From Clostridia bacterium (GTDB taxonomy: Bacteria > Bacillota > Clostridia > Oscillospirales > CAG-272): DNA of 64,000 nucleotides. The DNA lies in contig JAKSOD010000002.1 in NCBI GenBank assembly GCA_024405755.1, forward strand, positions 13,729 to 77,728, in the 5' to 3' direction. Below the pieces are notes generated by a model. The model had not been told where the DNA came from. It made no database searches and worked only from the letters and a program-made list of their open reading frames with translations. Below are positions 45,186 to 63,428 of this stretch, piece by piece (position 1 is the first letter of the stretch; every line of letters starts with the position of its first letter). A program made the translations under genes and the position numbers.

Positions 45186-45253
45186 AATATTTGTCGTCCT
45201 TTCAGATTATACTTCAGGGGCCGGAACACTTCCGTGCAACAGCCCCTCTTTTT

Positions 45254-45934: not shown

Positions 45935-45941
45935 GGAAGTA

Positions 45942-47072
45942 TCAGAAGCAGGAACGGATCGCATCGATCACGTACTGCTGTTCCTCCTCCGTCATTTTGA
46001 TATCCGAAGGCAGGCAAAGTCCGCGCGCGAAAACATCTTCGCCAACCGACTTATCTGCGGCACTCACTACATCATGTCCGCGGAATACCGGCTGCATATG
46101 CATGGGTTTCCATATAGGTCTTGACTCAACATTCGCTTCGTTAAGACGATTGAGAATATCCATGGGAGCGACCTGGCATCCCTCATCAATGAGCAGACAT
46201 GACAGCCAGAAGTTGGGCTTTGTGTTATCAAGATACGGATTCATAGTAACCGGCAGACCTGAAAGTCCTTCTGCGTATCTGCGGTAAATGGCTTCTTTTC
46301 TGTCACGGTGCTCTTCAAGGTGAAGCAGTTGGCCTCTGCCGATACCGGCAACGACATTGGACATACGGTAGTTATAACCTATTTCCTCATGCTGATACCA
46401 TGGTGCAGGTTCTCTTGCCTGAGTTGCCCAGAAAAATGCCTTTTTCCTTGATGCCTCGTCATCTGAAATAAGCATACCTCCGCCGGAGGTGGTGATGATC
46501 TTGTTTCCGTTGAAGGAGATAGCGTTGTACTTTCCGAATGTTCCGCACATTTTCCCTTCATACTGAGCGGAAAGTGCCTCTGCCGCATCTTCAATAAGAA
46601 CAGCATTATGCTTCTTACATATATCTGTGATTTCTTTCATCTTTGCGGGAGTACCGTAAAGGTGGGCAAGAACGACAACCTTTGCCTCCGGATACTTGCT
46701 AAAAGCCAGTTCGAGTGATTCGGGATCCATATTCCATGTATCTCGCTCCGAATCAACGAATACCTGAACTCCGCCCTCGTAACTGATGGGGTTAACGGTA
46801 GCGGAAAAAGTCATATCGGAAGCAAGTACAATATCCCCGCGCTTCACTCCAGCAAGTTTAACCGCAAGGTGAAGTGCTGATGTTCCGGAACACAGCGACA
46901 ACGTATAATATGTTTTGTCTTCTTTCCCGGAAAGATATGCTCCCATTTCATCCTCGAATCCGTCACAGTTGAATCCGAGCGGAGCTATCCAGTTCCGATC
47001 AAAAGCCTCTTTCACATATGTAAGTTCTTCTTCGTGCATTGTAGGAGATGACAGTAAAATTCTCTTTTCCAT
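45942..47072 (-). CDS. DegT/DnrJ/EryC1/StrS PLP-dependent sugar aminotransferase (PglE/EpsN-like)
   Basis: SGTSALHLA, EDAAEAL, SFNGNKIITTSGGG, GYNYRMSN, GLCLPS. Confidence 0.92.
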   Translation of the reverse strand: MEKRILLSSPTMHEEELTYVKEAFDRNWIAPLGFNCDGFEDEMGAYLSGKEDKTYYTLSLCSGTSALHLAVKLAGVKRGDIVLASDMTFSATVNPISYEGGVQVFVDSERDTWNMDPESLELAFSKYPEAKVVVLAHLYGTPAKMKEITDICKKHNAVLIEDAAEALSAQYEGKMCGTFGKYNAISFNGNKIITTSGGGMLISDDEASRKKAFFWATQAREPAPWYQHEEIGYNYRMSNVVAGIGRGQLLHLEEHRDRKEAIYRRYAEGLSGLPVTMNPYLDNTKPNFWLSCLLIDEGCQVAPMDILNRLNEANVESRPIWKPMHMQPVFRGHDVVSAADKSVGEDVFARGLCLPSDIKMTEEEQQYVIDAIRSCF

Positions 47073-47339: not shown

Positions 47340-48470
47340 TCAGTCGGCGGTAAGTCCGGAACGTTCGATACCCTGTACCAGGAATTTCTGGCAGAACAGG
47401 TACATGATGATCAGCGGAAGCATGATCAGCAGTCCGCAGGTGTTTCTGATCGCAGGATAGTAAAGGTTCTGTCCTGCATAGTTTGTTTCAAGTGACTTCG
47501 GAATAGCAACGACATCCGGCATAAGCACTGTCTTCGTTGTTGTGAAGAACAGTTTCGTGTAGAAGTCGTCGGTCCACTGCCATGAGAAGGCAAACAGGAA
47601 AACAGTGATCATCATAGGTATGGACAGCGGAAGAATGATCTGAATGAAGGTTCGGAAAGTACCCGAGCCGTCGATATAGGCGGATTCTTCAAGTTCATCC
47701 GGAACTCCGCGGAAGAACTGGCGGAGAAGGAAGATGTAAAGTCCGTTCTTGAATGCAAGACCGGTCAGTGACAGTACGATCAACGGCCAGAATGTGTTGT
47801 TGAGGTTAATACCGCCGTCAGCAACAAGTCCTTGAAGCAGTTTGCTCGTTCCGCCGTCTCCGAATATGTTGATCGAAGCAAGAATGTTATTCAGCCATTC
47901 AACATTTCCGACGCTTGCGTTACCCGAAAGGAATCCGAGTATTCCGAATACATCAAAGAAACGGAAGTGCATAAAGAGCGACAACTGCAGCGTCTGGTGA
48001 GGAACAACCATTGTCAGGATAACAGCACCGAATATCAGTTTTGCACCCTTGAACTTGAACTTTGCAAGACCGTAAGCAATAAGGCAGCAGATGAATGTCT
48101 GGATAAGAGCTGTGGATCCTGCAAGCAGAAGAGTGTTTCCGAATGCCTGGAAGTAGTTGTTTTCAAGCAGGATAAATTTGTAAATATCCAGTGAAAAATG
48201 CTTCGGGATAAGCATAACGGTAACATCAACGAAGTCTTCCTTGCTCATGAAAGATCCGGCGATCTTGCTGTAAAAGGGGAACAGAACTATATAAGCGATA
48301 CCAACGAGAAGAATGAATCTGAAAAGATACCATACGACGTTTCCAATGAAAGCCGTATTGATAAACTTTGCTTTCAGACGTTCTTTAAGAGGAGTACGTT
48401 CAAACTCGACTTTTATCTTGTTTTTGGTCTCCTTTTTGATTTTAGGAGCCATGGATTCTTGTGCATTCAT
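47340..48470 (-). CDS. Carbohydrate (CUT1) ABC permease, MalG-like, second pair
   Basis: AYGLAKFKF, EAA loop ELEESAYIDGSG, FSWQWTD, FLVQGIERSG. Confidence 0.9.
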   Translation of the reverse strand: MNAQESMAPKIKKETKNKIKVEFERTPLKERLKAKFINTAFIGNVVWYLFRFILLVGIAYIVLFPFYSKIAGSFMSKEDFVDVTVMLIPKHFSLDIYKFILLENNYFQAFGNTLLLAGSTALIQTFICCLIAYGLAKFKFKGAKLIFGAVILTMVVPHQTLQLSLFMHFRFFDVFGILGFLSGNASVGNVEWLNNILASINIFGDGGTSKLLQGLVADGGINLNNTFWPLIVLSLTGLAFKNGLYIFLLRQFFRGVPDELEESAYIDGSGTFRTFIQIILPLSIPMMITVFLFAFSWQWTDDFYTKLFFTTTKTVLMPDVVAIPKSLETNYAGQNLYYPAIRNTCGLLIMLPLIIMYLFCQKFLVQGIERSGLTAD

Positions 48471-48488
48471 TTATCTGTCCTCCTTTCA

Positions 48489-49475
48489 TCAGTCTTTACG
48501 CTGATAGAATACGAACGCTGAGAATATCGCAGCAAATATCGCAACTATCAGTATTACAATCAGGAAGTACATCCATGCCATAGCGGAACTGACTTCCTGT
48601 CCGTTGGTAGCAGTGTACTGATTGGCAATGAACTTCATCACCGTATTTGAGTCCGTCGTGAAAGAGTCGATAATAGTATAGACCGCGTTGACGAGGATCA
48701 TAGGGCTTATCATCGGGAAGGTGATCTTCCAGAATGTTTCCCATCCGGTAGCACCGTCCATCTGACAGGACTCGTAAATTGCGGGAGAGATCGACTGCAA
48801 ACCTGCAAGGAATATCAGCATCTGAACACCGGAACGGTTTACTATGTCGTAAATATCGTTGATCATCTGAACAACGTATCCAACAAGTTCAGTACCGACT
48901 TTCATATTTGAGAACAACTGCTCAATATCGATTGCGGATACTATCTGCGCCGCAGCACTCTCACCGGTTCCGTCGGCGATACTTTCATTCTCCATCATTT
49001 CCTCAACTGCGTTTGCGGCATTGATGGTCTCCATAAGACCGGTGGAAAGAATAACGGGAATGAAGAATATTGCACGGAAGACGGCACGTCCTGCCATCTT
49101 CTGATTCAAAAGCACTGCCATAAACAGTGAGAACAGAATGATGGCGGGAATGTCGAATGCCAACTCTTTAAGACCGGTAACAAGGGTCTTTACAAAGTCG
49201 GGGTTAACGAAGAGAGCCTCATTGTAGTTGGCGAAGCCGACGTTTTCAATGGTGAATCCCTCTCCGGACACGATCTTGATACGGCTGAAACTGTATTTGA
49301 TCGAGTCGAAAATAATCGGTAGATAAACAGCGACAAAACCGATAAGGAACGGCAGAATGAAGAACCAACCGGCGCGTGCTTTCTTTTTATCAAGGGAAGC
49401 AATGCGTTTTTTCTTCTTCGGAGCCTTATTCTGCGGAACGCTGACGGTCTGATTCAATTTTAACTCGTTAGTCAT
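48489..49475 (-). CDS. Carbohydrate (CUT1) ABC permease, MalF-like, second pair
   Basis: FRAIFFIPVI, FLAGLQSIS..YESCQMDGATGWETFWKITFP. Confidence 0.9.
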   Translation of the reverse strand: MTNELKLNQTVSVPQNKAPKKKKRIASLDKKKARAGWFFILPFLIGFVAVYLPIIFDSIKYSFSRIKIVSGEGFTIENVGFANYNEALFVNPDFVKTLVTGLKELAFDIPAIILFSLFMAVLLNQKMAGRAVFRAIFFIPVILSTGLMETINAANAVEEMMENESIADGTGESAAAQIVSAIDIEQLFSNMKVGTELVGYVVQMINDIYDIVNRSGVQMLIFLAGLQSISPAIYESCQMDGATGWETFWKITFPMISPMILVNAVYTIIDSFTTDSNTVMKFIANQYTATNGQEVSSAMAWMYFLIVILIVAIFAAIFSAFVFYQRKD

Positions 49476-49489
49476 TCTTTGCTCCTCCT

Positions 49490-52400
49490 TCAGTCATTAA
49501 TATCGGAAAACGATACGTAGATCGGTTCCGCACCGTTAACTTCGTCGATACGAACAGCGCCGTAACCGCTCAGAGTGTATGTATTTCCGTTGTATTCGGT
49601 AGTCGCGTCAAAGTAGTTGTAGTTGAGGATGATGGAGATTCCGCCCTCGTACTGGACGAGAACGATATTTCCGGAATCGTCGGTATACTTTGTCTTCTTG
49701 TATCCTTCTTCTTCCTCTTCTTTTTCTTCTTCGGGATCAACGGGAATTACTTCCTCAGAGTTGGGGTCTGTCATAACAACATTGATACCTTCCACGTATT
49801 TCTTGGAAAGTTCAACGGCTTCTACAGCGTAATCGTAGGTCTTTCCAGCCATATAGAGTATACCCTTCTTGGCGACCTCGTTTGTAGAATCATCAGCAGG
49901 TTCTGCGCCCTCGATTCCCTTCACGAGATCCTTGACCTCGTTGTAACTCTTGGTGACGTCATCTTTGAATTCAGCGTTGTACTTCTCATCTTTGATAAGT
50001 TCGGTATAAGCAAGTTCGGAATTGGTATAAGATACTTTGGCAAGAGATACGAAGGTATTCATAGCTCTGACGTTCTGAGATATGGTCTTATCAAGAGTCT
50101 TGACAGTCTTCTCATTGTCAGAAACTACTTTATCAGCGGCAGTCTTGGCAGAACCGGTGGTCTTTGCTTCAGCTGCAGCTATTTCAGCCTCAGCCTTTAC
50201 AGACTCGTAAACAGAAACAATTACTTCATAATCCGCGTTATCGGCATTGTAACCGGCAGCATATTCGCTTATTGCAAGAGGCTTTTCTGCTGCAATGAGA
50301 GCGACCTCGTATGCGGGCAACTTGCCGTAAGCATTGTCATAACTGGTAATTGCGTTCTGGAACTCCGCGGAAATGTTCTTGCTGTCTGCGTAAGAGTCTG
50401 TTACGGCAGCCTTTGCAGCATTTTCAGCCTCGGCAGCCGCAGTGTACTCTGCGGAATTCTTGTAATCTTTCTTGTAGTTGTTGATAAAGTCATTAAGAGC
50501 CTTGTCAGCGGCAGTCTTCTTGTCGGCAGCGGCCTTATACGCGGCATCGGAAGAATGCTTTGCGATATAATCGCTTACATATTTTTCAACTGCTGCGTCA
50601 GCGGCGCGCTTTTCGTCAAGAATGTAACTTCCCTTCTCAGCGTCTGCAAGTGCTTCGGCAGCGGTCTTGGCGGCGGCAAGAAGTTCTTTGGACTTTTCAA
50701 GGGCGGTATTGAACTTTTCGCTGTTCTCTTCGCCTTCCTTGTTGCTTTCCTTGGCATTGGCAAGCAGACCGTCGATCTCAGTGATCATGGTCAGGTATTC
50801 GGAAGCGGCAGAAGCAGCGGGAAGTTTCTTCGCTCTTGCAACAACGTCATCAAATGTTTTGAGTTTGTTCACGCCGCTCAGACTGTTGTAAAGTGCTGCG
50901 AAAGCGGCACTTGCCTTAGTCTGATATGAGTCGTATGTGAACTTGACCTGCATTTCGGCAGTTGCGATTGCAGAAGTCTCGTCAGAAGAATTAACGGCGG
51001 CTTTAAGTGCGTTGATATAATCGCGATATGCCTTGTCGACTTTATCAGCGTTCTCTTTCAGCGTCTTATAAGCGGAATCGGACTCGTAACCCTTGGAAGC
51101 GGCATCAAGTTCTGCTCTTGCAACCTCGACGTCGGATACAAGTTTCTTATAGTCAGCGGAATTGAAGTAAGCAACTTCTATACGGCTGAGTGCTTCGGAT
51201 GCTTTATTACGCTTGTCGGCAGCAGCCTTGTATTTGCTTACGATCCCGGGGACAGGAGAAACTGCGTTGAGTTTTGCATTAATGCCATCGAGTTTTGTCT
51301 TTGCTGAATTCTTTGCGGATTCAAGTGCTTTGTACTCGGCAGTTCTGCCTATATTCTCTTCCTTGGAGTCGGCTTCAAATGCTTTGAGAGCCTTATCATA
51401 TGCAGCCTTTGCGGCAGCATAATCAGCCTTTGAACCGAGGAAAGACGCTTCGTCAGAGTCAACCGCTGCCTGTTTTGCCTCGGTATTGGCAAGAGCAGCC
51501 TTGTACTCGGGAGTAAACTCATCGAGACCGGCAAGTTTCGCTTTTGCTTTGGCAACGAGATCGGCAAGTGCTTTGTACTCGGAGAATGTCTCATACTGTT
51601 CGTAGTTTTTGGCGAGGCTTTCCATGGAGCTTGTAGCAGTGGTAAGGACTTTGTTCCAATAAGCGTATTCAGGATTGTTCTTCTCGGTGATCTCATTCAT
51701 TGCAGTCTTAGCTTCATCAAGTGCTTTGACGGCTGTATTATAGGCAGCATCTGCATCAAGTTCATTCTGGTGATCGGCCTTTGCTTTCTTGAGTGCAGAC
51801 TCAGCATCGCTGAGTGCCTTTTTGAGTCCGCCGACGTAGTCGTTGAACGCTTTTTCGGCAGCCTTGTAATTTTCCGTCGCATCAACATATGCCTTGGCAT
51901 TGTCAACAGTTCCGGAAATAAAGGTCAGAGCGGATTTTGCACTGTCAAGAGCCTTCTTGTTGGCTTCACTTGCATCCTTTGCATAAGCATCGGAAGCATC
52001 ATTGTATGCCTTATAAAGAGCCGGGATCTTGGCAATACCTGCATCAACGGCAGCGACAGTTGCATTGTCGAGAAGTTCAACCTGGGCTTCAATCTTGGTC
52101 TTCTGAGAATCAACATTGCTCTGTGCTTTGGTATAAGCAGCAAGAAGTGTTGAATAGTTCTTGTTGTTGCCTTCGGAAAGAATGCTCTTGAAGTTATTCT
52201 GAGTTACCTTCCAGATATCTGCAAGTTCGGTCTTGGAAGCTGAATCAGCCTCAGCCTTTTCGGCGGCAGCTGTGGTCTCCTCTGCCTTCTTGCGGGAATC
52301 TTCGAGCATCTTTACGAGTGTCTGCATTCCAATTGTATTGGAAACCATTCCGCTTTCATCGATGGTATATCCGCCGGCGTAGCAGTTCTTGATGGACTCG

Positions 52401-55400
52401 TAGTAATGCTTTACATTGGTAATTGCATTCTTTGCGTTATCAAGCGATTCGATACGTCCGCTGTTGCGGGCTTCTTTCGCAAGTTTTTCTTCCTCAATGC
52501 GGATAGCTTCTTCCGCCTTCTTGATTGCCTCTTCCGCTTCCTTGGCGTCTGCGATTACCTCATCAGGATCGGGAACACGTTCACCGATAAGGAACTGATG
52601 TCCGATGATCTTGGACAGCTGGAGATCTTTGGTAAGATCGTTCAGAAGTTTGTAATACCTTACTACGTCATTTTTCAGTATGTCGTAACGTACGGAATAA
52701 TACTGGCTGAGGTTCATATCCTCTTTGAGTTCTTCGTAGTTCTCGTAGCAAAGTATAAAGTAAAGAGAAGCACCGTTTTCAACTGCTTTAAGCAGACTGT
52801 AACCGATATTTCCTTCCATATTAAGAGGAGATCCGGCGTACTGAGTGCTGCCGTGCAGAACGACACCGATGAAGGGTACCGCTGCGCTGGATTTGATGTA
52901 ACGGCTGGAATCAAGCGGAACGTCCACGATATAATCGACATATTTCCATACGTAAGAGTTTGCACCCTCGGTCATAATGTCGTCGTAATCGTTCGCCATC
53001 TTCTCCATAAGTTCAATGGTGGACTTTTTGGAGTCCTCACGGTTTGCGGGATCATCCTCGTCAAAGTCGGAGTTAAGGGAAGTTCCGATCGTTCCGACAG
53101 AGATCGCAGAAGTGTATCCTTCGGGGTAGTACTTCATGAGGTTTTCAGTAAGTTTGTCGTAGAAGTGGCTGAAATATGCAGCACTTATCGCAAGTTCATA
53201 ACGACCTACGTATGTCTGCTTTGTTGCGCTGTAATAGCGGCGTGACATATAGGTGTTGTTGATAGACTTGACGATATGCTCCTTCATGGTCAAACCGTCA
53301 AACAGACCATCGGAAGATGCTCTCACGTATTCGAAGTCAAAGTCCGGGAATACTTCGAGATCGTAGTTGGTCTCTTTGGAATAATCCATCAGGTCTTCGT
53401 ATCCGCTCTTGCCGCCGACGGATTTCTCCCATTTCAGGCGATACGGCACGGAGGCATAGATACCGCCGTTGGCGTAACCTGAAAGTTTGAACTTGATGTT
53501 TGAAACACCCTCTGCGGAGAGTTCATTATACATGGTCTTGATATTGTCGAAGGAGGTCATAGAAGTCATTACGTTCACGGGAACGGAAAGGATCTTCTGA
53601 ACGGTCTCCATTGTCCCGAATGTCTGGATGTAAACGGGAAGATTCTCGTTTACGTCCTCTTTTTTGAGGGATTTCAGGTTTCCGGTAGCATAGAGGTAAT
53701 CGCGGTATGCTTCCGCCATACCCATCCAGGATACCTCGTAGTAATCCTTGATATTCTTTTCCTTGGCAATGTTGTCATCAGTCAGCATTATGTAACGGAT
53801 CTTATAGTTGCCTACGTACTTACGGGAAGAAACGACGGTCCATGTTGCGTTAGCACCGACTGAAATAGCGTTTGCAAGGTTATAGGAGTCTTTCGGTCTC
53901 GGGTAGAACAGCATCTGAATGATGTTGTACTTACTGAGAGTACCGGCATGGTAAGTGGAAAGTTCTGCAAGAGCATCGCCTTCTTCGATAATGGCAACGA
54001 ATCCGCGATCTTCTTTATAGATCTCGGTATTTGTTACTTCCTTGGTCTGAGGAGTGCCGTCCTCGTTGTATACTATGTTGCCGTCCTCATCCAGTACATT
54101 CTCGGTCGTTATGGTCTGACGGGGTTCGGAGTAATTGGACACTATTCCGAAAACAGGATAACGTATTGTTTCCTGATGAGAACCGGTGATTGTGTTATAC
54201 GCGAAGTCCTGACCGTAAACTTTACCGTTAATGGTGGTTGTTGCGGAACCTGCAAGATCTTCGTGTCTGAACAGCGTTCCGGATCCATCCGGGAAGAAGT
54301 TGTACCCCGTAAAGGTTTGTTTCTTATCGTTCAGATAGTAGTTTGCGCCTGCGCCCATATAAGGCAGGATGCTGATGTTGTTGAGCTGATACAGGGACTC
54401 ATTGAAACGGAGACCGTTGGCAGGCATACGCACGCTCATTCCCCACTCGTCAAGGGTATATTCAAGTGATAGTTTGAACAGAGGCGGAGCCTTGTCGCTT
54501 CCGCTGTAACCCGTCTGGTTATGGTCCTTGTCAAGTTCTTCGTACGTATATTTAGGTACGTATGTCTTGATGTAGGATTCCACAAGTGTCAGCTCGGTAT
54601 TGGTTGCGTCGCTTGCGAAAACGTAGATATTCATGCTGCTGCATACAGGATATGCGGCGATCATTGAACTCCTCTCACGCTGGGTCTTGCACTCATCAAG
54701 AGCCTTGTGAGTATAGAATGCTCTCAGTTTGTTGAACTTGAACCATTCGTCGTTTCCGCTATCGGAAACGATTTTACTGAACATTGCGAGAGTTTTATAG
54801 TCTCTCCAATCAATGACTTTCATTTTATCGTTTCCGGCAGAGATTTCGTTGATATAATCTGCGAAAGGATCAAGGATCAGAGTCTCGAATCTCGTCTCTT
54901 CAATCATTCTCGGAACGAGCATTCTCGTTTCTTCACGACCGATACGGTACTCGATTCTGATACCGTTCTTGATGTTCTTTGCCGTTATCTGTCCGCGTTC
55001 AGCAGCCTCAACGAAACTGTACATGGTCTTGTCGGTGTCGTTGTCTCTGTAATCAATGACGATCTGAGACATGATCTTTTCCTTCGTTGAATCAACGTAG
55101 GAAGTTGCGCCGACGTCGTATGGGTTGGAGAACAGAGTCTGACCGGAAGCCATATTATAGGTGGCAACCTCACCGGTCAGGGTATCGACGAAGAGTTGAT
55201 ATCCGTTTTTCTCGTACATCAACTCCATTGTCGCGAGTTTTTCTTCGGGAGTCTTGAACTCTTTTTTAAGGTACTGTTTTACGGTTTCCTTGTAGTCGAT
55301 CTCCTCGGTTTCCTTGCCTTCGTTGTTTTTGACATAGATAATGTCAACGGCATAGGCACCGACATCGATCATGATCGTCCCGAAAAGCATCACGACAGTC

Positions 55401-55426
55401 AGAAGCAATGCAATTATTCTTTTCAT
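49490..55426 (-). CDS. Giant secreted DUF5696-like protein with a ~950-aa Ala/Lys/Tyr-rich helical insert
   Basis: Signal peptide MKRIIALLLTVVMLFG...AYA (ATG 55426 after AGGAGG); ILPYMGAG, FFPDGSG, VYGQD, YPVFG, WMGMAEAYR, VFPDFDF, VPFIGVVLHG, KAVENGA, recalled as DUF5696-type motifs; helical insert at about 52570-49700; short beta-rich C-terminus. Confidence 0.75.
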   Translation of the reverse strand: MKRIIALLLTVVMLFGTIMIDVGAYAVDIIYVKNNEGKETEEIDYKETVKQYLKKEFKTPEEKLATMELMYEKNGYQLFVDTLTGEVATYNMASGQTLFSNPYDVGATSYVDSTKEKIMSQIVIDYRDNDTDKTMYSFVEAAERGQITAKNIKNGIRIEYRIGREETRMLVPRMIEETRFETLILDPFADYINEISAGNDKMKVIDWRDYKTLAMFSKIVSDSGNDEWFKFNKLRAFYTHKALDECKTQRERSSMIAAYPVCSSMNIYVFASDATNTELTLVESYIKTYVPKYTYEELDKDHNQTGYSGSDKAPPLFKLSLEYTLDEWGMSVRMPANGLRFNESLYQLNNISILPYMGAGANYYLNDKKQTFTGYNFFPDGSGTLFRHEDLAGSATTTINGKVYGQDFAYNTITGSHQETIRYPVFGIVSNYSEPRQTITTENVLDEDGNIVYNEDGTPQTKEVTNTEIYKEDRGFVAIIEEGDALAELSTYHAGTLSKYNIIQMLFYPRPKDSYNLANAISVGANATWTVVSSRKYVGNYKIRYIMLTDDNIAKEKNIKDYYEVSWMGMAEAYRDYLYATGNLKSLKKEDVNENLPVYIQTFGTMETVQKILSVPVNVMTSMTSFDNIKTMYNELSAEGVSNIKFKLSGYANGGIYASVPYRLKWEKSVGGKSGYEDLMDYSKETNYDLEVFPDFDFEYVRASSDGLFDGLTMKEHIVKSINNTYMSRRYYSATKQTYVGRYELAISAAYFSHFYDKLTENLMKYYPEGYTSAISVGTIGTSLNSDFDEDDPANREDSKKSTIELMEKMANDYDDIMTEGANSYVWKYVDYIVDVPLDSSRYIKSSAAVPFIGVVLHGSTQYAGSPLNMEGNIGYSLLKAVENGASLYFILCYENYEELKEDMNLSQYYSVRYDILKNDVVRYYKLLNDLTKDLQLSKIIGHQFLIGERVPDPDEVIADAKEAEEAIKKAEEAIRIEEEKLAKEARNSGRIESLDNAKNAITNVKHYYESIKNCYAGGYTIDESGMVSNTIGMQTLVKMLEDSRKKAEETTAAAEKAEADSASKTELADIWKVTQNNFKSILSEGNNKNYSTLLAAYTKAQSNVDSQKTKIEAQVELLDNATVAAVDAGIAKIPALYKAYNDASDAYAKDASEANKKALDSAKSALTFISGTVDNAKAYVDATENYKAAEKAFNDYVGGLKKALSDAESALKKAKADHQNELDADAAYNTAVKALDEAKTAMNEITEKNNPEYAYWNKVLTTATSSMESLAKNYEQYETFSEYKALADLVAKAKAKLAGLDEFTPEYKAALANTEAKQAAVDSDEASFLGSKADYAAAKAAYDKALKAFEADSKEENIGRTAEYKALESAKNSAKTKLDGINAKLNAVSPVPGIVSKYKAAADKRNKASEALSRIEVAYFNSADYKKLVSDVEVARAELDAASKGYESDSAYKTLKENADKVDKAYRDYINALKAAVNSSDETSAIATAEMQVKFTYDSYQTKASAAFAALYNSLSGVNKLKTFDDVVARAKKLPAASAASEYLTMITEIDGLLANAKESNKEGEENSEKFNTALEKSKELLAAAKTAAEALADAEKGSYILDEKRAADAAVEKYVSDYIAKHSSDAAYKAAADKKTAADKALNDFINNYKKDYKNSAEYTAAAEAENAAKAAVTDSYADSKNISAEFQNAITSYDNAYGKLPAYEVALIAAEKPLAISEYAAGYNADNADYEVIVSVYESVKAEAEIAAAEAKTTGSAKTAADKVVSDNEKTVKTLDKTISQNVRAMNTFVSLAKVSYTNSELAYTELIKDEKYNAEFKDDVTKSYNEVKDLVKGIEGAEPADDSTNEVAKKGILYMAGKTYDYAVEAVELSKKYVEGINVVMTDPNSEEVIPVDPEEEKEEEEEGYKKTKYTDDSGNIVLVQYEGGISIILNYNYFDATTEYNGNTYTLSGYGAVRIDEVNGAEPIYVSFSDIND

Positions 55427-55445: not shown

Positions 55446-57587
55446 TTACGTTCGGTAGTTGATCTCAACAATAATGTTGGTGATGAAGCTGACGATCTTT
55501 CCGAGCAGCGTAGTAAAGAGTATTGCTATGAACATTATGAACGCCATACCGACAAGAGTGCCGAGTGACGTGACAAAGTTCTTGAAGAGTGTGTAGTCGT
55601 GAGTTACCATCATACCGACGAAAATCAAAAGTCCGGTCCAGATGAATGCAATCGTACCTATGAAGGACACGATATCAAGTTCTGCCTTGATAGCGAAGTT
55701 GGAATAAATGGTAACGGGAACTACGAGCATGGGAAGCGGCAGCAGAGAATAGGCAGTTGCAATAAAGATGTCCTTGAAACTTCCTTCGCCCTCAAACAGG
55801 GTGGTCAGACACCAGTTGGCAAGTACCCAAAGCACGAAGGGAACGAGAATACTCATAGCCTGTGAAACTATGGTAGTGTAATGTCCCTGCGGATTGGTAA
55901 GGTATCCGGAACCGATATCCTGATAGAAGAATGCGAGAATGGTTACCGCGATATAAACGAGCGAAGCACGTACGGATCCTCGTTTTTCATGTTTCAGATC
56001 CCAGAATCCGTCGAATGGGTGGAAGATCAGGTGGAAACCGTAGAGGAGCTCCTCACCAAATGTTCTCTTTCCGCCCGCAGTTGCTGCCCGGGTATTGATC
56101 TTACCTGCTTTCTTGAAGAACAGCGTGATAAGAACGATAAGTCCTACAACGATAACGGGAATCAGAAGAACATATTTCGTGATCCACTGCTGTCTGATCT
56201 CCTTGTAGGAGTCGGACCAGCCGCTTGTGTCGTAGGCTGACTCGTAATACTTCATTGCGTTTTTGTAGTCGCCGTTACGGTACATAGCATCACCGATTCC
56301 GATATACGCGGCGTCAAAGTTGGAGTTTCTCTTCAGAATCTCCATCCAGTCGTTGATCGCGCTGTCGTAGTGACGGTTGTTCTGGTTTGCCAGAGCATTG
56401 ATCAGAATGTCGCCGTACTCGGTACGCTGGAAGACGGTAATATTGTCGTTCTGGTTATCGAGGATCAGCATTTTTCCGTCGCTCAGGTATGTGATTCCGC
56501 AGATGCTGGAAAGGTTTCCGAGCTGGTTACCGGAGTCACCAAACGCGAACAGCAGGTTGCCGTCCTTATCATAGGTAAATATTTTCTGACGTCTGGTATC
56601 GATGATAGACCACGTCTGCTCCGGACCGACGGCTACGTCATGTATCATGGAAACACCGGTAATGGATCCGTCTGCCTTGTTATTGGAGATTTCGATCTCA
56701 CCGGCGGGAGGCCAGAAACCGTTTCTCGACATGACCTCAACACCGGACTGGTTGAGCAGTTTTACGGGAGCGTAGTCACCGGATTTTGATTTACCGGTAA
56801 TCGCACTCTTTACTTTGCCTTCGGAAATTGAGGATGTGGTAACGTAAATGAATCCACGTTCGTTCATAGTAATATTGTTGAACTCGGTGGAAATGTAGGA
56901 TTGGCTCATTTCTTTCTGAGCGTCTGTCTGGAATGATCTCCAGAGCTTATCCCATGCAGAAATTGTAACCTTCTGAGCTCCGACGAATTTAATAAACTCG
57001 CCGTCAATGCTCATAACGATAATACCCTGATAGGTAGTGGAAGATACTACATAAAGTCTCTCATAATCATCGACTGCAAGAGCAATGGGCTTGTAAACGG
57101 CGTCATCGTCGAACAGGCTGCTCTCAGGCTGAGGGATGATCTTGATAAACTCGTGAGAATCTCTGTCAAACAGAACGATACGGTTCTTATCGGTATCTGC
57201 TACAAAGATCTTATCCTTTGTGATATACACACCCTTGGGACCGCCGAGTTGATCGGCAATTCCTTCATCATTATAGAATTTGGAAATGGGTTCACCCTTC
57301 TGCTTGAAGTACTTATCAAGGATAACGATACGGTTGTTTGCGGTATCGGCGATATAGATATTATCTTCGTCGTCAACTTCAATGTCACCGGGATCGTCGA
57401 TCGCTTTTGCAAGTCCCATATAAGAAGAGTTGATAGTCTGAACGGGAGTGTAAGCATCCGGCGAGTAAAGTGCGTGGCCGTCGATAGAGTAGGTGTAAGT
57501 CTGGTATGATCTTACGGCACATACAGGGGCGGCGAGCACTGTCACGAGCGCGAAAATCAACGCGACCGCACTAATGATTTTTTTCAT
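55446..57587 (-). CDS. NHL-repeat beta-propeller + TPR + Yip1-like multi-TM fusion protein
   Basis: Signal peptide; NHL-like PGDIEVD..IYIADTANNRIV and PKGVYI...FVADTDKNRIV; TPR-like AYIGIGDAMYRNGDYKNAMKYY; TM helix; Yip1-like HPFDGFWDLKHEKRG followed by about 5 TM helices. Confidence 0.8.
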   Translation of the reverse strand: MKKIISAVALIFALVTVLAAPVCAVRSYQTYTYSIDGHALYSPDAYTPVQTINSSYMGLAKAIDDPGDIEVDDEDNIYIADTANNRIVILDKYFKQKGEPISKFYNDEGIADQLGGPKGVYITKDKIFVADTDKNRIVLFDRDSHEFIKIIPQPESSLFDDDAVYKPIALAVDDYERLYVVSSTTYQGIIVMSIDGEFIKFVGAQKVTISAWDKLWRSFQTDAQKEMSQSYISTEFNNITMNERGFIYVTTSSISEGKVKSAITGKSKSGDYAPVKLLNQSGVEVMSRNGFWPPAGEIEISNNKADGSITGVSMIHDVAVGPEQTWSIIDTRRQKIFTYDKDGNLLFAFGDSGNQLGNLSSICGITYLSDGKMLILDNQNDNITVFQRTEYGDILINALANQNNRHYDSAINDWMEILKRNSNFDAAYIGIGDAMYRNGDYKNAMKYYESAYDTSGWSDSYKEIRQQWITKYVLLIPVIVVGLIVLITLFFKKAGKINTRAATAGGKRTFGEELLYGFHLIFHPFDGFWDLKHEKRGSVRASLVYIAVTILAFFYQDIGSGYLTNPQGHYTTIVSQAMSILVPFVLWVLANWCLTTLFEGEGSFKDIFIATAYSLLPLPMLVVPVTIYSNFAIKAELDIVSFIGTIAFIWTGLLIFVGMMVTHDYTLFKNFVTSLGTLVGMAFIMFIAILFTTLLGKIVSFITNIIVEINYRT

Positions 57588-57597
57588 TGCTGCCTCC

Positions 57598-58470
57598 TTA
57601 ATCTTTCATACCGGACGAACCCATGGTTTCAATGATGTTCGACTGGCTTATAACGAATACCGTAATCGGGACCATCATCATAATGACCTGCGCCGCAGCA
57701 CTTGCGCCTGCACGCTTGATACCGCCGGCGGTGATCTGACCTATTGCGTAGTTGAACGATTTCAGCTGTTCGGAGTGGATATAGATCGAAGATCCGGCAT
57801 TCCACAGATCCTGGAAGCAGTAGATAATCAGAGTCAGCCAGGCGGGTTTGACCATAGGCATTGCAATGACCCAGAATGTTTTGAGTTCGCTTGCGCCGTC
57901 AAGTCTTGCAGATTCAAGAACAGCATTCGTTACGTTGGTTTCCATGAACTGTTTCATCAGGTACAGACCCAGAGTTGAGCCCCATGCGGGAATGATCAGT
58001 GCCCAGTAGGTATCAATCATACCGAGGAAACTCATCAGAATGAAGTTTGTAACTGCGGTAACGGTCTTATGGAACATAAGTGACGTACGAATGGTTTTAA
58101 ATATCCATTTACGTCCGGGGAACATGATCTTCGCAAGAGCATAGGCAGCAAGTGATCCGAAGAACAGGTTGCCGGCGGTACCCATAACGGAGACGAACAC
58201 GGTATTGAATATGTACCGTGAGAATGGGACCCATGATGTGTTCATGAGTACGAACAGATCCTTGAAGTTATTGAAAGTCGGCTTCATAACGTAGAATCTC
58301 GGAGGGAACATCCAAAGTTCGTCAAGAGGCTTGAATGCCTGCATCCATACGTAGAGCATAGGCAGGAACATGAATGCTCCGAGAATAGTGAGCATAAATG
58401 TGATGCCGAGGTCGCCGCCGGCGGATCTGTTAAGAACGACTTTATGTTTTCTTGTTCTAAGTCTTGACAT
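57598..58470 (-). CDS. Carbohydrate (CUT1) ABC permease, MalG-like, first pair
   Basis: FKPLDELWMFPP, EAA loop VLESARLDGASE, PMVKPAWLT. Confidence 0.9.
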   Translation of the reverse strand: MSRLRTRKHKVVLNRSAGGDLGITFMLTILGAFMFLPMLYVWMQAFKPLDELWMFPPRFYVMKPTFNNFKDLFVLMNTSWVPFSRYIFNTVFVSVMGTAGNLFFGSLAAYALAKIMFPGRKWIFKTIRTSLMFHKTVTAVTNFILMSFLGMIDTYWALIIPAWGSTLGLYLMKQFMETNVTNAVLESARLDGASELKTFWVIAMPMVKPAWLTLIIYCFQDLWNAGSSIYIHSEQLKSFNYAIGQITAGGIKRAGASAAAQVIMMMVPITVFVISQSNIIETMGSSGMKD

Positions 58471-58471
58471 C

Positions 58472-59419
58472 TTACTGACCTACCTTTGACAACATCTTCT
58501 TGACCAGAGAGTTAGCTCCGACCATTATAGCGAAAAGTACGACTGCTATTGCCGACGAATAACCGACCTCGAAACGGGAATGACCGTAGTCATCGAGGTG
58601 GTGCGTTATCGTCCATGCACAGTAGTTGACCGACGGGTTTCCGCAGAGGGCATTAACGACTCCTCCGAAACCGAAGGACTTTGTAATAGCCATGATAGCA
58701 CCGAACATCAACTGCGGCTTCATTGTAGGAAGGGTAACGTACCAGAGTTCCTGCCAACGGTTGCGGATTCCGTCAACGGCACCGGCCTCGTAAAGCGATC
58801 TGTCGATACCCTGAAGACCTGCGATAAATGACAGAAAGGAAGTTCCGAGGGAGGTCCACAGAGAAACTACGATACAAAGAGGCATAACGTAGTCTGCATC
58901 TTCGAAGAACTGTATTTCTTCGTTTATCAATCCCAGATTCAGCAAGGTCGCGTTGACCCAGCCGTAGGAGTCTCCGGAGAACAACGTACCCCAGATAAGG
59001 TAAACCTCACCGGAAATTGACGGTGCGTAGAAGATCAGAGTTACTATTGCTCTGATCTTCGGTCCGAGTTCGTTGATGAACCATGCAACAAGCAGGGACA
59101 TCAGGTAGGAAGCGGGACCGACGATACATGCGAAAATGAACGTATTCTTGATCGCTATCAGGAATATGTCGTCGTCAAGGAAAAGGCGGATGTAGTTATC
59201 CAGGAAAACGAAGTTAGGCATTTCGAGCAGGTTGAAGTCCGTGAAACTGACGATAATGGAGACAAGAACCGGCGCGATAGTGAACAGAATAAAGACGATA
59301 CAGTACGGGGCGATCATTGCGTATGCAACCCAGTTGCGCTTCATCTCTTTCCATGTCCACTGCAACTTTGTCATATCTTTTCTGGATACAGCCTTTTTAG
59401 TTGCTGTTTTCTGTGACAT
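58472..59419 (-). CDS. Carbohydrate (CUT1) ABC permease, MalF-like, first pair
   Basis: SFTDFNL, FYAPSISG, FIAGLQGIDRSLYEAGAVDG; start placed at ATG 59419 after AAGGAG. Confidence 0.9.
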   Translation of the reverse strand: MSQKTATKKAVSRKDMTKLQWTWKEMKRNWVAYAMIAPYCIVFILFTIAPVLVSIIVSFTDFNLLEMPNFVFLDNYIRLFLDDDIFLIAIKNTFIFACIVGPASYLMSLLVAWFINELGPKIRAIVTLIFYAPSISGEVYLIWGTLFSGDSYGWVNATLLNLGLINEEIQFFEDADYVMPLCIVVSLWTSLGTSFLSFIAGLQGIDRSLYEAGAVDGIRNRWQELWYVTLPTMKPQLMFGAIMAITKSFGFGGVVNALCGNPSVNYCAWTITHHLDDYGHSRFEVGYSSAIAVVLFAIMVGANSLVKKMLSKVGQ

Positions 59420-59456
59420 TAACTTTTTCTCCTTACTAAGATTTGATTCGAGCCGA

Positions 59457-62400
59457 TCAGTCGATCGGGTAAGATGCCTGATATGCTGCGAGAGCGTCTG
59501 CACATTCTTCAATGTACTCACAAACGGTGGCAAGAAGAATCTGCTCAGCGGTGATATTCTCTTTGATACCGCTGTCCTTCTCGGAGCTCTTGTGAATGAT
59601 CGTACTCAGAACGTCTCTGTACTGAGAAACGGCGGTCAGATACTTGCCGTCTTCGGCATTTTTAAGAGTCTCGAATTTGACCTTTGCCATTGCCTGTGCG
59701 TCTGCGCTGAGTTTTTCGTTGATGGCAATAATATCAGCGGAACAAGCCTTTGCAAGTGCTTCGCCGGCATTGCGCAGAGCATTGATGTACTCTGTTTCGC
59801 AATAGACGCTGAATGATGCCTTCTCGTCAATCGTCATAAGAGCCTTTTTGACGGCTTCGATTTCAGATGCGTACTTCTTCTTGTCTGCGTCGGAAAGTCG
59901 GAGAGAAGTATCGTAATTGAGTTTATCCCCTTCTTCGCTGAACGCATCCATCATCTGACCGAAACGCTTGCTTGCGAGGGTTTCGCCTACTTCAAGAGTT
60001 TCAAGTCCGAACTCATTGCGTTTACGGGTTATTTCCTTATTGATGGTAGCAATGTACCCGAGCAGTTCGTTTACGGGGTTGGCAGCATCGTTATATGCAT
60101 TGAGGAACGCAAACTTTGTATAACGTCCGATAATGTATGCGCCGGGATAGTTAGGAATGGAAGCGAGGTTGTCAAACTGAGAAATCAGGTTAGTGTACTC
60201 TTTGTTGGTCCAGGGCATGGATTTCAGAGCCTTGATATTCGCGGTGGCGTGTTTTGCAGAGTCACCGAGGATAGCGACCATTTCGTTGGAGTAATTGATC
60301 TGGCAGTCCGAACCGGAATGCCACTTCATGAATTCCCAGGCAGCCTCTTTATTTTCAACACCGTGTATCATAACAATCGCGGAAACGGAAGAAACCGAGA
60401 CGTTATTGATGGACTTATTGCCGTTGGCATCAACAGTCTCGATACCGGGCAGCGGTACGAATTCCCACAGACCGCGCAGCTCCGTCGCAAATACGATCAG
60501 GTGGTTGTAAGTTCCGTTGTATGAAGCGATACCGATAGGCATCTCACCGGTACGGAAACGGTTGACGAAATCGTACTTGTAGGGGAATGAATACTGAGTG
60601 AACAGATCGCACATGGTCTCGAAGGAGTCGAGAGCAACGTTGGAGTCAAGGTTGATTCTCATTCCTTCGTCAGCAAACAGTGTTCCGCCCATCTGATAGA
60701 GGAAGATCTTGTAGTCGTTGCTCAGACCTATGGTCATACTGTTCTGGCTGAGGACCGTCGCTGCTTCACGCAGGTCATCCCACGTGTCAAGGCATTCAAT
60801 ACCGAGGTCGGCAAGGATATCGGTACGGATGAACATCATCGGGAAGTTCTGTGTCTCTGGCAGTCCGTAGTAATGCATGAAGTTATCGGCATCCGGAATA
60901 CCGAGAACATACATTGCTGCGTCATTGAAGTTAGCGATGGGGTTGACAATAGGATCTCCGTTCTCATCGTACAAGGTATTGTAGTTGTTGTCTACCTTAT
61001 AATATAGGAGATCTGTAAAGCCCTTCATATCTTCGACTTCTACCAGTGCTCCGCGGATTGCGTAGTTGATAACGCTGTCGTCGCCGAGTCCGACATAGAC
61101 ATCGGGTCCTCTTCCTGACAGGATGGAAGGCAGAAGCGTTCCGCCTGCGACCAGTTTCAGATCAACGGCGATGTTGGTGGAAGGAGTGAATTCGTTGTTG
61201 ATAAGGTTACGCATGACCTGAGTCTGGTCACGGCCGCTGGACATCCAGACTTCAATGGTATCCATATTCTCCGCAACATCGGAAGCACCCATACGGTCAT
61301 AGTTACGGAAGAAACTCTGAATGAAGCTCTTGATTTCGTGCCATGCGGACTGGAAGAAGTTTGCCTTTGCTGTCGGCATCTTTTCTTCACTGCTCTGAAT
61401 CATGATATAGTCAAGTCCGAGAGGCTGAGTCTTCGCATCACTGAGCCATGTACCGAGAGAACCTATGTAACTCTTCAGCTGTTTGAGGTTCTTGGCAATT
61501 TCCGTCTCAGGGTCTGATCCCATTCTTTCAAGCAGCCATCCCACTTTTTCAAGTGTCGCAACGTTGGAACTCTTGACACCCGCGAGGGAGGTCAGTTCGG
61601 CAGCGATCTTCTTGATGATCGTAGACTGGATAATGAGGTCAATAACGGTATCGGGCATTACGCTGGAGAAAGAATAGTCGCGGTTTTCGTCAGGCTCTGC
61701 ACCGGTTAACTTCATTATATTAAGATAGGCGTTGTTTATGGTGGTCAGCGAGGAGTCAACCTTTCTGACGATATCGGACATTGTTCCGAGAGCGACTTCG
61801 AATTCAATGGTGTACTCAACACCGGCTTCAAAGTAGAATTCGCAATTGATATATTCAATGGTCTTCTCTCCGTCTGCTTTTCCAACAATTCCGTAACGGA
61901 GAGGATCAGTCTGCCAGTCGGAAGAGTAATTGAAACGAAGTTCACGTGCCTCATCAAAAGGAACTCCGTCATAGTATCCCTTGTCCCCCGGCTTTACGCT
62001 TTCATCGCTGTAAATGTAAAGGACACGTGAGGAATACATACCGTCGTTGATATTCTGACGGTAACGAGGTATGATGTTGTACATACCGCTTTCTTCCACT
62101 TTGAATGTGTACCCTACAGTCTGCATGGCGACCTGCCACTTATCGCCTCCTATGGTGTTCAGAAGCGTACGGGTGGTGTCGCAGGGACTTGTGACCGCGG
62201 AAGAACGGTCTTCAATGGGGTAAATGGTATTGGTGGAAGTATAAGCGGGAAGTTCAGCCTCGATCTTTACGACCGATGTGCCTTTCTTCTCTCCCACATA
62301 CTTTGCGGAATACTCATCATACGAGGGAAGTACATCAATCGGGCACAGGGTGATGCTTTCAATCACCATAGGCTCACTGACACCCTCAAAGGACAGTTCA

Positions 62401-63137
62401 TTCTCGCCGGCTTCAAGAACGAATTCGAAGCAGTCTTTATAGAAACCGTCCACGTCTTTCAGCGTGTACTGACGCCATTCGGGAGCCATAAGGATAGACG
62501 CACGGATCTCGTTGTTGTCAATATCAAGTTTGAAAGGACGTACGGTTCCGTCGCTCAGTGTATTCTTATCAAACTGAGCGGGATCTTCAATGTAGTCTGT
62601 TCTCCACATTTTGTTGAGGGTTATGTAATACGCCTCTGAAAACGGGACGTTATTGTTGATACGGAAAATACGCTGGATCGAAGTATCCTTGGACTTTTCG
62701 ATAGTTTTTCCGTCAGCAACACTGATGCTCTCTTCAATAGTCGGCCAGTATCTGATGCGAATGGTGTACTTCGCAGTCTTCGGAATGTTGACTTTGTATA
62801 CCAACTTTCCGGAAGCGTCAACGGCAAGTCCGTCAACACCGTCATACTTTTCGCCTCCGACTTCCGCGACGAGAGCGGTGGTAGAAGTCTTATCGTAATC
62901 ACGTCCGGAGATCACGATATCGGCCTCAGCCTTCGGATAAAGTGTTTCGTCGGAATACTTTTTCTCGTATTCCTCGTACGAAATTAAACCGAGCAACTCT
63001 TTTGCGTTCGCAATGGCTTTGCTGGTCTCGGACATCTCACTACCCGTATCGGCAGCCGATACAGGCACGAAGAAGCAACCGATAACAAAGATTGCGGACA
63101 ACATAAGAGCGACTACCCTTTGAAATTTCGTTGCCAT
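59457..63137 (-). CDS. Very large extracellular solute-binding protein with N-terminal beta-sandwich (CBM-like) domains and a C-terminal helical extension
   Basis: Signal peptide; two jelly-roll-like segments (YKVNIPKTAKYTIRIRY; KIEAE...YTFKVEESGMYNI); SBP_bac_1-like core (GRDQ, GRGPDV, YGLPETQNFPMMFIRTDIL, FRTGEMPIGI, AWEFMKW); ATG 63137 follows AGGAGG. Confidence 0.85.
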   Translation of the reverse strand: MATKFQRVVALMLSAIFVIGCFFVPVSAADTGSEMSETSKAIANAKELLGLISYEEYEKKYSDETLYPKAEADIVISGRDYDKTSTTALVAEVGGEKYDGVDGLAVDASGKLVYKVNIPKTAKYTIRIRYWPTIEESISVADGKTIEKSKDTSIQRIFRINNNVPFSEAYYITLNKMWRTDYIEDPAQFDKNTLSDGTVRPFKLDIDNNEIRASILMAPEWRQYTLKDVDGFYKDCFEFVLEAGENELSFEGVSEPMVIESITLCPIDVLPSYDEYSAKYVGEKKGTSVVKIEAELPAYTSTNTIYPIEDRSSAVTSPCDTTRTLLNTIGGDKWQVAMQTVGYTFKVEESGMYNIIPRYRQNINDGMYSSRVLYIYSDESVKPGDKGYYDGVPFDEARELRFNYSSDWQTDPLRYGIVGKADGEKTIEYINCEFYFEAGVEYTIEFEVALGTMSDIVRKVDSSLTTINNAYLNIMKLTGAEPDENRDYSFSSVMPDTVIDLIIQSTIIKKIAAELTSLAGVKSSNVATLEKVGWLLERMGSDPETEIAKNLKQLKSYIGSLGTWLSDAKTQPLGLDYIMIQSSEEKMPTAKANFFQSAWHEIKSFIQSFFRNYDRMGASDVAENMDTIEVWMSSGRDQTQVMRNLINNEFTPSTNIAVDLKLVAGGTLLPSILSGRGPDVYVGLGDDSVINYAIRGALVEVEDMKGFTDLLYYKVDNNYNTLYDENGDPIVNPIANFNDAAMYVLGIPDADNFMHYYGLPETQNFPMMFIRTDILADLGIECLDTWDDLREAATVLSQNSMTIGLSNDYKIFLYQMGGTLFADEGMRINLDSNVALDSFETMCDLFTQYSFPYKYDFVNRFRTGEMPIGIASYNGTYNHLIVFATELRGLWEFVPLPGIETVDANGNKSINNVSVSSVSAIVMIHGVENKEAAWEFMKWHSGSDCQINYSNEMVAILGDSAKHATANIKALKSMPWTNKEYTNLISQFDNLASIPNYPGAYIIGRYTKFAFLNAYNDAANPVNELLGYIATINKEITRKRNEFGLETLEVGETLASKRFGQMMDAFSEEGDKLNYDTSLRLSDADKKKYASEIEAVKKALMTIDEKASFSVYCETEYINALRNAGEALAKACSADIIAINEKLSADAQAMAKVKFETLKNAEDGKYLTAVSQYRDVLSTIIHKSSEKDSGIKENITAEQILLATVCEYIEECADALAAYQASYPID

Positions 63138-63428
63138 TATGGTTCCTCCTGCCATGGTTTTTGCGGTTAATTCCCGCCGGAATGTTTTTTCCGCCGATAT
63201 TCGCGTCTCTGCGCGCCCAAAGGCTCGTCAGACGCTGCTTTCGGCAACTTGCCCTGAGCCTTCCGGAACACAGCAGGAGGCGGATAGTCTGCTATGCTCC
63301 GTTTTTTTAATCCGATCAGCACCGCACTTCCGCTGCGGTATGACGGAAAAATAAATTTCAAGGCTCTGCTTCCGCTGTCGTTTTTGAGGGAAACACACCG
63401 CGGTAGGGCAAAATACCATAAAATTTAT
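63138..63428 (-). promoter_or_regulatory. Long structured 5' leader with anti-Shine-Dalgarno and anti-anti-SD segments (candidate translational switch)
   Basis: mRNA CCUCCUGCUGUG (63280-63269) complements CAUGGCAGGAGG (63156-63145); alternatively CGGAGCAUAGCAG (63301-63289) pairs with CUGCUGUGUUCCG (63276-63264). Confidence 0.5.

Follow-up and report, generated by a model that had tools for sequence, protein, structure and literature searches.

A predicted helical arm of 953 residues inserted in the C-terminal Ig-like domain of a GH129-like DUF5696 protein from a Clostridia bacterium

In glycoside hydrolases of the GH129 and GH129-like types the catalytic residue is an aspartate, Asp435 in NagBb and Asp486 in DagB. 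NagBb is the GH129 alpha-N-acetylgalactosaminidase of Bifidobacterium bifidum (structures 5wzn, 5wzp and 5wzq), and DagB (ZGAL_3152) is a GH129-like alpha-1,3-(3,6-anhydro)-D-galactosidase of Zobellia galactanivorans (5opq and 8rzk) composed of a beta-sandwich, a TIM barrel and, at its C-terminal end, an immunoglobulin-like (Ig-like) domain. The DagB paper places this last domain at residues 621-693, about 73 amino acids (aa), and describes a homodimer that is stabilised by a swap of the domain's C-terminal strand (PMC5698469). The Ig-like domain of DagB is continuous, and neither DagB nor NagBb carries an arm. Here we describe a DUF5696 gene whose product is predicted to share this fold and in which 953 residues interrupt the C-terminal Ig-like domain. 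It lies on the minus strand at 49490..55426 of a 64,000-nucleotide (nt) stretch of contig JAKSOD010000002.1 (positions 13,729 to 77,728) from an uncultured gut Clostridia bacterium (GTDB lineage Oscillospirales; CAG-272); this whole stretch is called the window, and coordinates refer to it.

Two other kinds of protein resemble the insert in shape. PrgA of Enterococcus faecalis pCF10 (6z9l) is likewise a Gram-positive extracytoplasmic protein with a long antiparallel helical stalk; its globular domain crowns the stalk, while the two ends of the chain lie at the wall, with an LPXTG-type anchor. The PrgA preprint gives a stalk of about 40 nm (bioRxiv 10.1101/2020.06.18.156562). The arms of SMC, MukB, JetC and Rad50 are long intramolecular antiparallel helical excursions that leave and re-enter one globular module.

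The window protein is a new, extreme arm-bearing version of a GH129-like protein, its structural reading coming from prediction and comparative data. We consider it probable, though by no means settled, that the insert is a folded all-helical arm in the Ig-like domain, serving as a structural spacer, reach element or tether.

The gene, the insert and its position

A single open reading frame (ORF) runs from 55471 to 49490 on the minus strand. Its likely start is the ATG at 55426, which has caggagga 7 nt upstream and gives a protein of 1978 aa; residue numbers used here count from the upstream TTG at 55471 (ATG numbering plus 15). An identical 1978-aa protein is on record (P0002). Pfam PF18952 (DUF5696) matched with 393.2 bits against a gathering threshold of 25.6 (E 2.8e-117). 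The C-terminal part was modelled with AlphaFold2 as a fragment covering ORF aa 921-1993, from a 119-row alignment (fragment number equals ORF aa minus 920), and local confidence is given as the predicted local distance difference test (pLDDT). The main features are as follows.

49490..55426, minus strand: whole gene; the DUF5696 / GH129-like product has 1978 aa when started at the ATG at 55426, and there are a PF18952 match and a ribosome-binding site
55331..55426, minus strand: putative signal peptide or signal anchor at the N-terminus (ORF aa 16-47); the protein has no other hydrophobic segment
52559..55330, minus strand: core, comprising the N-terminal beta-sandwich, the (beta/alpha)8 barrel and, of the Ig-like domain at the C-terminal end, the first strand, as predicted from Pfam and the model of homolog P0181
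52577..52609, minus strand: strand beta-1 of the C-terminal domain, KIIGHQFLIGE (ORF aa 955-965), adjoining the arm (fragment model E35-45, block pLDDT 86-90)
49700..52558, minus strand: predicted helical arm, 953 aa (ORF aa 972-1924), from composition and the model (pLDDT 88.8, 35 helices)
49493..49699, minus strand: 69-aa tail with the other strands of the C-terminal Ig-like domain (profile 571-603; six predicted strands, pLDDT about 92)

The initial annotation, made from the sequence alone, had placed about 950 aa of Ala/Lys/Glu-rich, Pro-poor helical sequence at 49700..52570. Measurement of the composition confirmed the switch, which follows ...LIGERVPDPDE (ending at aa 971) and lasts for 953 residues (49700-52558, within 12 nt of those coordinates). 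The arm contains 19.2% A, 11.9% K, 10.3% E and 1.3% P, as compared with 5.8% A, 7.0% K, 7.6% E and 2.8% P in the 956-aa core. It has a net charge of -41 and terminates in DPEEEKEEEEEGY, after which comes the 69-aa beta-type tail. Over the whole protein, Kyte-Doolittle windows exceeded 1.6 only at window starts aa 12-29, with no C-terminal or second hydrophobic segment; apart from LPAAS within the arm there is no LPxTG-like string, and Pfam gave no SLH match in the protein. Hydropathy, motif and Pfam results thus agree with the earlier remark that no LPXTG, SLH or C-terminal transmembrane anchor is visible.

Contigs from four runs of four studies were compared with the window, with a possible source run excluded. 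Positions 49401-52800 were covered in one piece, with 4 substitutions and no gaps, by a 9417-nt contig from a metatranscriptomic library of another study. Among contig pieces from the other three runs, X3 (51814-52800) and X7 (52296-52800) bridged the core/arm junction, X6 (49400-50359) and X3 (49646-50304) the arm/tail junction, and no joints or indels were reported in this comparison. Homologs of 74% and 63% identity contain inserts of 953 and 951 aa. The 953-residue insert is real DNA and not an assembly artefact; the concern about misassembly raised at the outset is answered by the contigs from other studies that span both junctions. The metatranscriptomic contig over the whole arm is also compatible with expression, although a contig from an RNA library is no proof of transcription.

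The DUF5696 profile was matched at positions 129-575 (of 612) by aa 484-960, before the arm, and at positions 571-603 by the tail alone, weakly (E 0.034). The coordinates are collinear, and the stretch between is therefore an insertion. In a set made up of the window protein and 240 homologs among the matches listed, the core-end and tail anchors were sought in each sequence; both were present in 235 of the 241 proteins, and one truncated artefact was dropped to leave 234, in which the spacer between the anchors ranges from 6 to 1209 aa. For P0181, which has a 6-aa spacer, an AlphaFold model from a 114-sequence alignment (pLDDT 87.3, predicted TM-score (pTM) 0.83) has a strand at 891-901, a short loop and then the tail strands. 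In the fragment model of the window protein, beta-1 and the tail together matched DagB 5opq at 564..690 (Z 7.9, rmsd 3.4, 96 residues, model 3..1073), and the 11-residue beta-1 can pair only with the tail strands, because the other strands in the fragment form one 4+4-residue hairpin. The arm interrupts the small C-terminal Ig-like domain in the segment that connects its first strand to its second.

This bears out the initial placement of the insert within a C-terminal beta domain, and the homolog alignment called for at the time has mapped both the site and its length variation. The tail does not behave as an independent domain, since it matches the C-terminal domain of DagB together with the strand that precedes the arm. 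The initial annotation also had the two flanks nearly adjacent in ordinary-sized homologs; this holds for the 5 of 234 proteins with 6 aa between them, but in most ordinary-sized relatives (109 of 234) the flanks stand 61-129 aa apart.

Predicted architecture and structural relatives

The GH129-like three-domain fold was tested on the model of P0181. That model matched DagB 5opq to its last residue (Z 28.7, rmsd 4.3, 587/658 residues) and NagBb with Z 26-27 (5wzq 26.6), clearly above GH101 (Z about 19) and GH13 (about 18), and Foldseek gave E 4e-26. At the sequence level, identity to DagB is about 15%, and the one PDB sequence that the family profile touches is NagBb, in its barrel strand region, where the match was not significant (E 0.12). 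The window protein differs from DagB in having a core about 300 aa larger and in its place in an ATP-binding cassette (ABC) importer cassette. Judging from these models, it is probably an extracytoplasmic GH129-like (DUF5696) protein, of a predicted sugar-cleaving type.

In the fragment model (pLDDT 88.8, pTM 0.55), 35 predicted helices account for 801 of the 953 arm residues; the median helix has 21 residues and five have at least 39 (969-1007, 1049-1098, 1101-1147, 1189-1233 and 1738-1825). The predicted elements of the arm are as follows.

52451..52567, minus strand: root helix, 39 residues, E/K/R/A-rich (ORF aa 969-1007; fragment model H49-87, block pLDDT 68-81)
52031..52327, minus strand: outgoing stalk helices (ORF aa 1049-1098 and 1101-1147), from the fragment model, paired with the return side by fold-search ranges
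50612..50959, minus strand: four-helix bundle in the distal part (ORF aa 1505-1620; 2etd Z 10.1, rmsd 3.4, 115 residues; talin R4 2lqg Z 9.9)
49997..50260, minus strand: returning helix of 88 residues, about 13 nm (ORF aa 1738-1825), from the fragment model
49685..49795, minus strand: disordered acidic return linker, 37 aa, including DPEEEKEEEEEGY (ORF aa 1893-1929; coil 973-1009, pLDDT below 50 at 992-1003)

A CTT x 9 tract lies at 49705-49732, within the acidic linker region.

Helix pairings and topology were deduced from the residues at which fold-search alignments begin and end, not from coordinates. Fragment 84..971-975 superposed on single spectrin repeats (Z 8.4-9.3, rmsd 2.4-2.6, 105-112 residues), and both ends of the insert would therefore sit in one bundle. 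These scores for a three-helix bundle of about 106 aa at the base of the arm fall below the search tool's bar for helical bundles (Z about 13), and no spectrin family was among the Pfam matches listed for the arm at E ≤10. In the ranges 143..865, 145..853 and 188..810-816, the outgoing long helices pair antiparallel with the return side. Fragment 257-492 appears as an elongated unit and 585-700 as a four-helix bundle, whose scores (Z about 10) are likewise below the bar and show the arrangement only.

From these pairings, the chain would leave the beta domain as a single E/K-rich helix of about 6 nm, enter a three-helix bundle at the base, to which the two ends of the insert both contribute, continue into an antiparallel stalk of about 13 nm and then into further three- to four-helix bundles, come back to the base bundle, and re-enter the beta domain through the 37-residue disordered acidic linker. 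The enzyme would thus carry a rod-like appendage. The root helix is the sole rigid link between beta domain and arm in the model and is present in all length classes, including the short-arm relatives; its sequence, EEAIKKAEEAIRIEEEKLAKEAR, and its lower pLDDT (68-81) suggest a single alpha-helix of the ER/K type.

We regard it as quite likely that the arm folds as elongated helical bundles with its ends packed together. Its length is put at roughly 20-40 nm, an estimate that is rough because a pTM of 0.55 leaves the placement of the bundles uncertain. The initial annotation had proposed an antiparallel hairpin stalk or helical-bundle rod of at most about 70 nm. The bundle rod with its ends together is what the model predicts, whereas the root departs from a two-stranded hairpin in having one helix out and a disordered 37-aa linker back; the bound also stands (71 nm for a hairpin), but the arm should fall well short of it because it consists mostly of multi-helix bundles.

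The AlphaFold and Foldseek analysis of the insert yielded an elongated helical arm and not a known compact globular domain. The top Foldseek matches in the PDB were 7nyx (E 1.3e-4) and 9qe0 (E 2.1e-4), with MukB, JetC, condensin and PrgA among the best and TM-scores of 0.05-0.10. Arms of the SMC/Rad50 type matched with VIA Z 8.4-9.3 at rmsd 26-54 Å, PrgA only weakly (Foldseek E 0.018, VIA Z 7.5, rmsd 36 Å), and the viral fold library BFVD gave generic long helical proteins resembling SbcC, SMC or tape-measure proteins (TM-score ≤0.10). The helical scores are below the tool's threshold, so these matches describe shape and not kinship. Unlike PrgA, the window protein would have its globular enzyme at the base and a free tip, and it has no LPXTG motif. 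Unlike SMC and Rad50, the arm has no hinge domain and is predicted to consist mostly of three- to four-helix bundles and not of a continuous two-stranded coiled coil. No ABC-type ATPase head halves flank the arm; the flanks are Ig-like strands, and Pfam finds DUF5696 only. Searches of the arm for a known domain were negative: Pfam matches at E ≤10 were at noise level (jr-ZPR1 0.23, DUF5678 0.61, REX1B 3.7), NCBIfam gave nothing, PDB sequences no match better than E 0.28 and the ESM Atlas no usable match.

Length series and evolution of the arm

Spacer lengths among the 234 proteins fall into classes: 6 aa in 5, 61-129 in 109, 201-305 in 41, 392-531 in 32, 605 and 619 in 2, 806-849 in 29, 951-998 in 13 (including the window protein and P0002), 1082 and 1087 in 2, and 1209 in 1. 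The 61-129-aa class consists of one Ala/Glu/Lys/Arg helix and an acidic linker. DUF5696 was found in 113 of the 121 genomes of the window's GTDB family, in frames of 919-2072 aa, and in 55 of 199 genomes of other families of the class, in frames of at most 995 aa (748-771 aa in genomes of the same order). The profile runs unbroken to about 612 in all 55 of the latter, and the insertion is thus found only in the window's GTDB family.

A HMMER search of 1.84 billion representatives with the arm returned 5 matches at E ≤1e-3, all of them DUF5696 arms, one being a C-terminal fragment that ends in the tail (P0244). When the arm alone was compared with 33 arms by BLASTP there was no match at E ≤1e-3, and phmmer recovered the same-genus arm only (E 3.4e-6). 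No paralogue of the arm was found in its own genome, which has one DUF5696 gene. Elsewhere, short DUF5696 paralogues of about 570-630 aa, matching only profile positions of about 186-611 and lacking the N-terminal part, stand beside a full-size cassette copy (G076, G099, G081, G003, G024, G071 and several genomes of other families).

At least 13 shifts between length classes occur on a tree built from 230 cores, and among 62 family loci arms of at least 950 aa occur at two places in the tree. The tree is unrooted, so gains and losses are indistinguishable. The window's sister, from the same genus, has a 400-aa arm. Core and arm identities to the window protein are 85 and 63% for P0003 and 77 and 50% for P0004, and in distant long-armed homologs the core remains at about 68% while the arm falls to 30-34%, near the 24-27% of shuffled arms. 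Sequence change in the arm is about three times as fast as in the core; what looks like conservation at the two ends of the arm may partly be alignment extension from the conserved flanks.

Length and certain positions are held more closely. Twenty-five arms of 806-833 aa (sd 7) have a median identity of 53% with a median of 10 gap columns, their cores being 86% identical. In 41 long arms, 75 positions are at least 80% conserved, mostly Tyr, Trp, Ala and Gly, and no conserved polar patch was found. A degenerate helix-start motif, (S/T/D)-x-x-Y-(K/T)-A-(A/L), recurs at a spacing of 24-34 aa and fits the conserved positions.

Internal repeats of the arm were considered and rejected: self-BLAST gave the self match only, and ungapped 25-aa windows reached a top score of 57 as against 59 for the best shuffle. 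There are no DNA tandem arrays in the arm, which indicates no recent amplification. An exact 18-nt repeat at 51322-51339 and 51565-51582, 243 nt apart, encodes the recurrent ...EYKAL helix-start motif; the arm has no other exact DNA repeat of this length.

A second insertion hot spot was noticed at the tip of the long N-terminal beta-hairpin (aa about 447-489, window about 54005-54130). Here the family members L007, L011, L012, L027 and L034 contain 513-580 aa of non-helical Cys-rich repeats (C..C ... C..CG, Thr/Gly/Glu-rich) and L033 a 254-aa acidic insert. The DUF5696 proteins with inserts at the hairpin have short arms at the C-terminal site (67-165 aa).

Cassette context and the role of the arm

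The DUF5696 gene is the fifth in a tight minus-strand operon encoding a binding protein, two permeases, an NHL/TPR/Yip1 protein, the DUF5696 protein and two further permeases. Its neighbours are as follows.

59457..63155, minus strand: giant solute-binding protein, 1232 aa, whose C-terminal 177 aa form a helical extension
57598..59533, minus strand: first ABC permease pair
55446..57587, minus strand: NHL/TPR/Yip1 membrane protein, 713 aa, the upstream neighbour
47340..49475, minus strand: second ABC permease pair, starting 15 nt after the DUF5696 stop

Each of the 62 family loci has a Yip1-like and a binding-protein-like ORF upstream of the DUF5696 gene and in the same orientation. The helical extension of the binding protein (about 177 aa in the window, 59457-59990) measures either 66-177 aa or 0-23 aa across the family, with 40 aa at one locus. 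The hydrophobic N-terminus of the binding protein (63060-63155) includes the string ...FVIGC..., a possible lipoprotein box. Immediately downstream of the cassette, at 42976-47072 on the minus strand, are genes for a DegT-type aminotransferase, a Bac_transf sugar transferase and two GT4 glycosyltransferases, and polysaccharide-synthesis genes thus adjoin what is assumed to be an uptake cassette.

If the insert is a folded spacer, its geometry and not a specific binding surface would be what matters: it would set the position of the enzyme relative to the membrane importer and the cell wall, or reach through the wall. A structural arm fits better than a specific binding domain, given the fast drift, the retained helicity and length, the aromatic core positions, the lack of a polar patch, the one rigid and one flexible attachment and the absence of the arm from relatives. 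Several points weigh against this account. The fold is an AlphaFold prediction, its pairings come from the ends of fold-search rows, a pTM of 0.55 leaves relative bundle placement uncertain, all helical matches are under the bar of Z about 13, and TM-scores to SMC arms and PrgA do not exceed 0.10. The arm sits on the C-terminal domain and not between an N-terminal anchor and the enzyme, as a simple stand-off spacer would. The extra 550 aa or so relative to the sister arm cannot be placed, because global alignment scatters the gaps. The relatives with 6-aa spacers indicate that the cassette works without an arm, and the fast drift would also fit a nearly neutral expansion. The spacer or tether role, taken on its own, is accordingly tentative, with a chance somewhat short of even.

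A docking platform is an unlikely alternative. The arm would bind another protein of the cassette, with the binding protein's helical extension as the most plausible partner, and so bring enzyme, binding protein and permeases into one complex. Across the 62 family loci an extension of at least 60 aa accompanies 24 of 25 arms of at least 190 aa as compared with 8 of 37 shorter arms, arm length and binding-protein length are correlated (Spearman 0.62, n = 61), and no other locus of the set has an extension as long as the window's 177 aa, which goes with one of the longest arms. This raw association is strong, but co-evolution of the two lengths had to be set aside as a candidate: one clade carries it, each trait changes only 4 times on the tree, and with only 3-4 independent pairs it has no statistical power. 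The extension also occurs with arms of 24-48 aa and hence predates arm growth; extension and arm have no sequence similarity (z 1.7; 11/200 shuffles reach the score); and the lack of a conserved polar patch also speaks against docking.

Comparably improbable is a bolder extension of the spacer account, in which the arm is a length-tuned rod spanning the wall, and the membrane-proximal enzyme and its double ABC importer become the Gram-positive equivalent of a machine that captures glycans at the outer surface. The arm's distal bundles would reach outside the peptidoglycan or dock the helical extension of the binding protein. Arm length would then track the thickness of the lineage's envelope, which would explain the stepwise series from 6 to 1200 residues.

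Self-association, in which the arm mediates enzyme dimers, bundles or a surface lattice, seems less probable still. Long helical rods often pair, and the DagB dimer swaps the C-terminal strand of the very domain that bears the insert here (PMC5698469); against it, the monomer model buries the helices in intramolecular bundles with high pLDDT.

We give an equally low chance to a nearly neutral origin of the arm, as a low-complexity helical linker that expanded in runaway fashion and itself serves no function. The near-shuffled identity of arms between proteins with 68% identical cores, the repeated changes of length class and the difference of about 550 aa between genomes of one genus are what such drift would leave. 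It is countered by the 25 proteins in which length is held to 806-833 aa with few indels at 53% arm identity; by the conserved aromatic positions, the confident fold and the lack of DNA-level tandem arrays, which point to a maintained structure; and by the cost, for genomes of about 2 Mb, of maintaining an open frame over about 2.9 kb. An assembly chimera or sequencing artefact has next to no chance, as independent contigs cross both junctions, arms of at least 800 aa occur in 45 of 234 homologs, the GC content of the arm is similar to that of its flanks and nothing was found in its favour.

Glycoside-hydrolase-type enzymes normally extend their reach with modules at the chain ends, such as carbohydrate-binding modules, linkers and anchors. 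A helical rod, up to about 1,200 residues long, that loops out of a 70-residue Ig-like domain is undescribed, as far as our literature searches went: they found no paper mentioning DUF5696, nothing joining GH129 with an insertion in the C-terminal domain and, judged by title and abstract, nothing related on coiled-coil-stalked glycoside hydrolases of Gram-positive walls. The arm bears on the role of the widespread binding-protein/Yip1/DUF5696 cassette. The lengths of 6 to 1209 aa that occur naturally among close relatives in the gut amount to a set of deletions already at hand, with which the placement of extracytoplasmic enzymes and ABC importers in the Gram-positive envelope could be probed.

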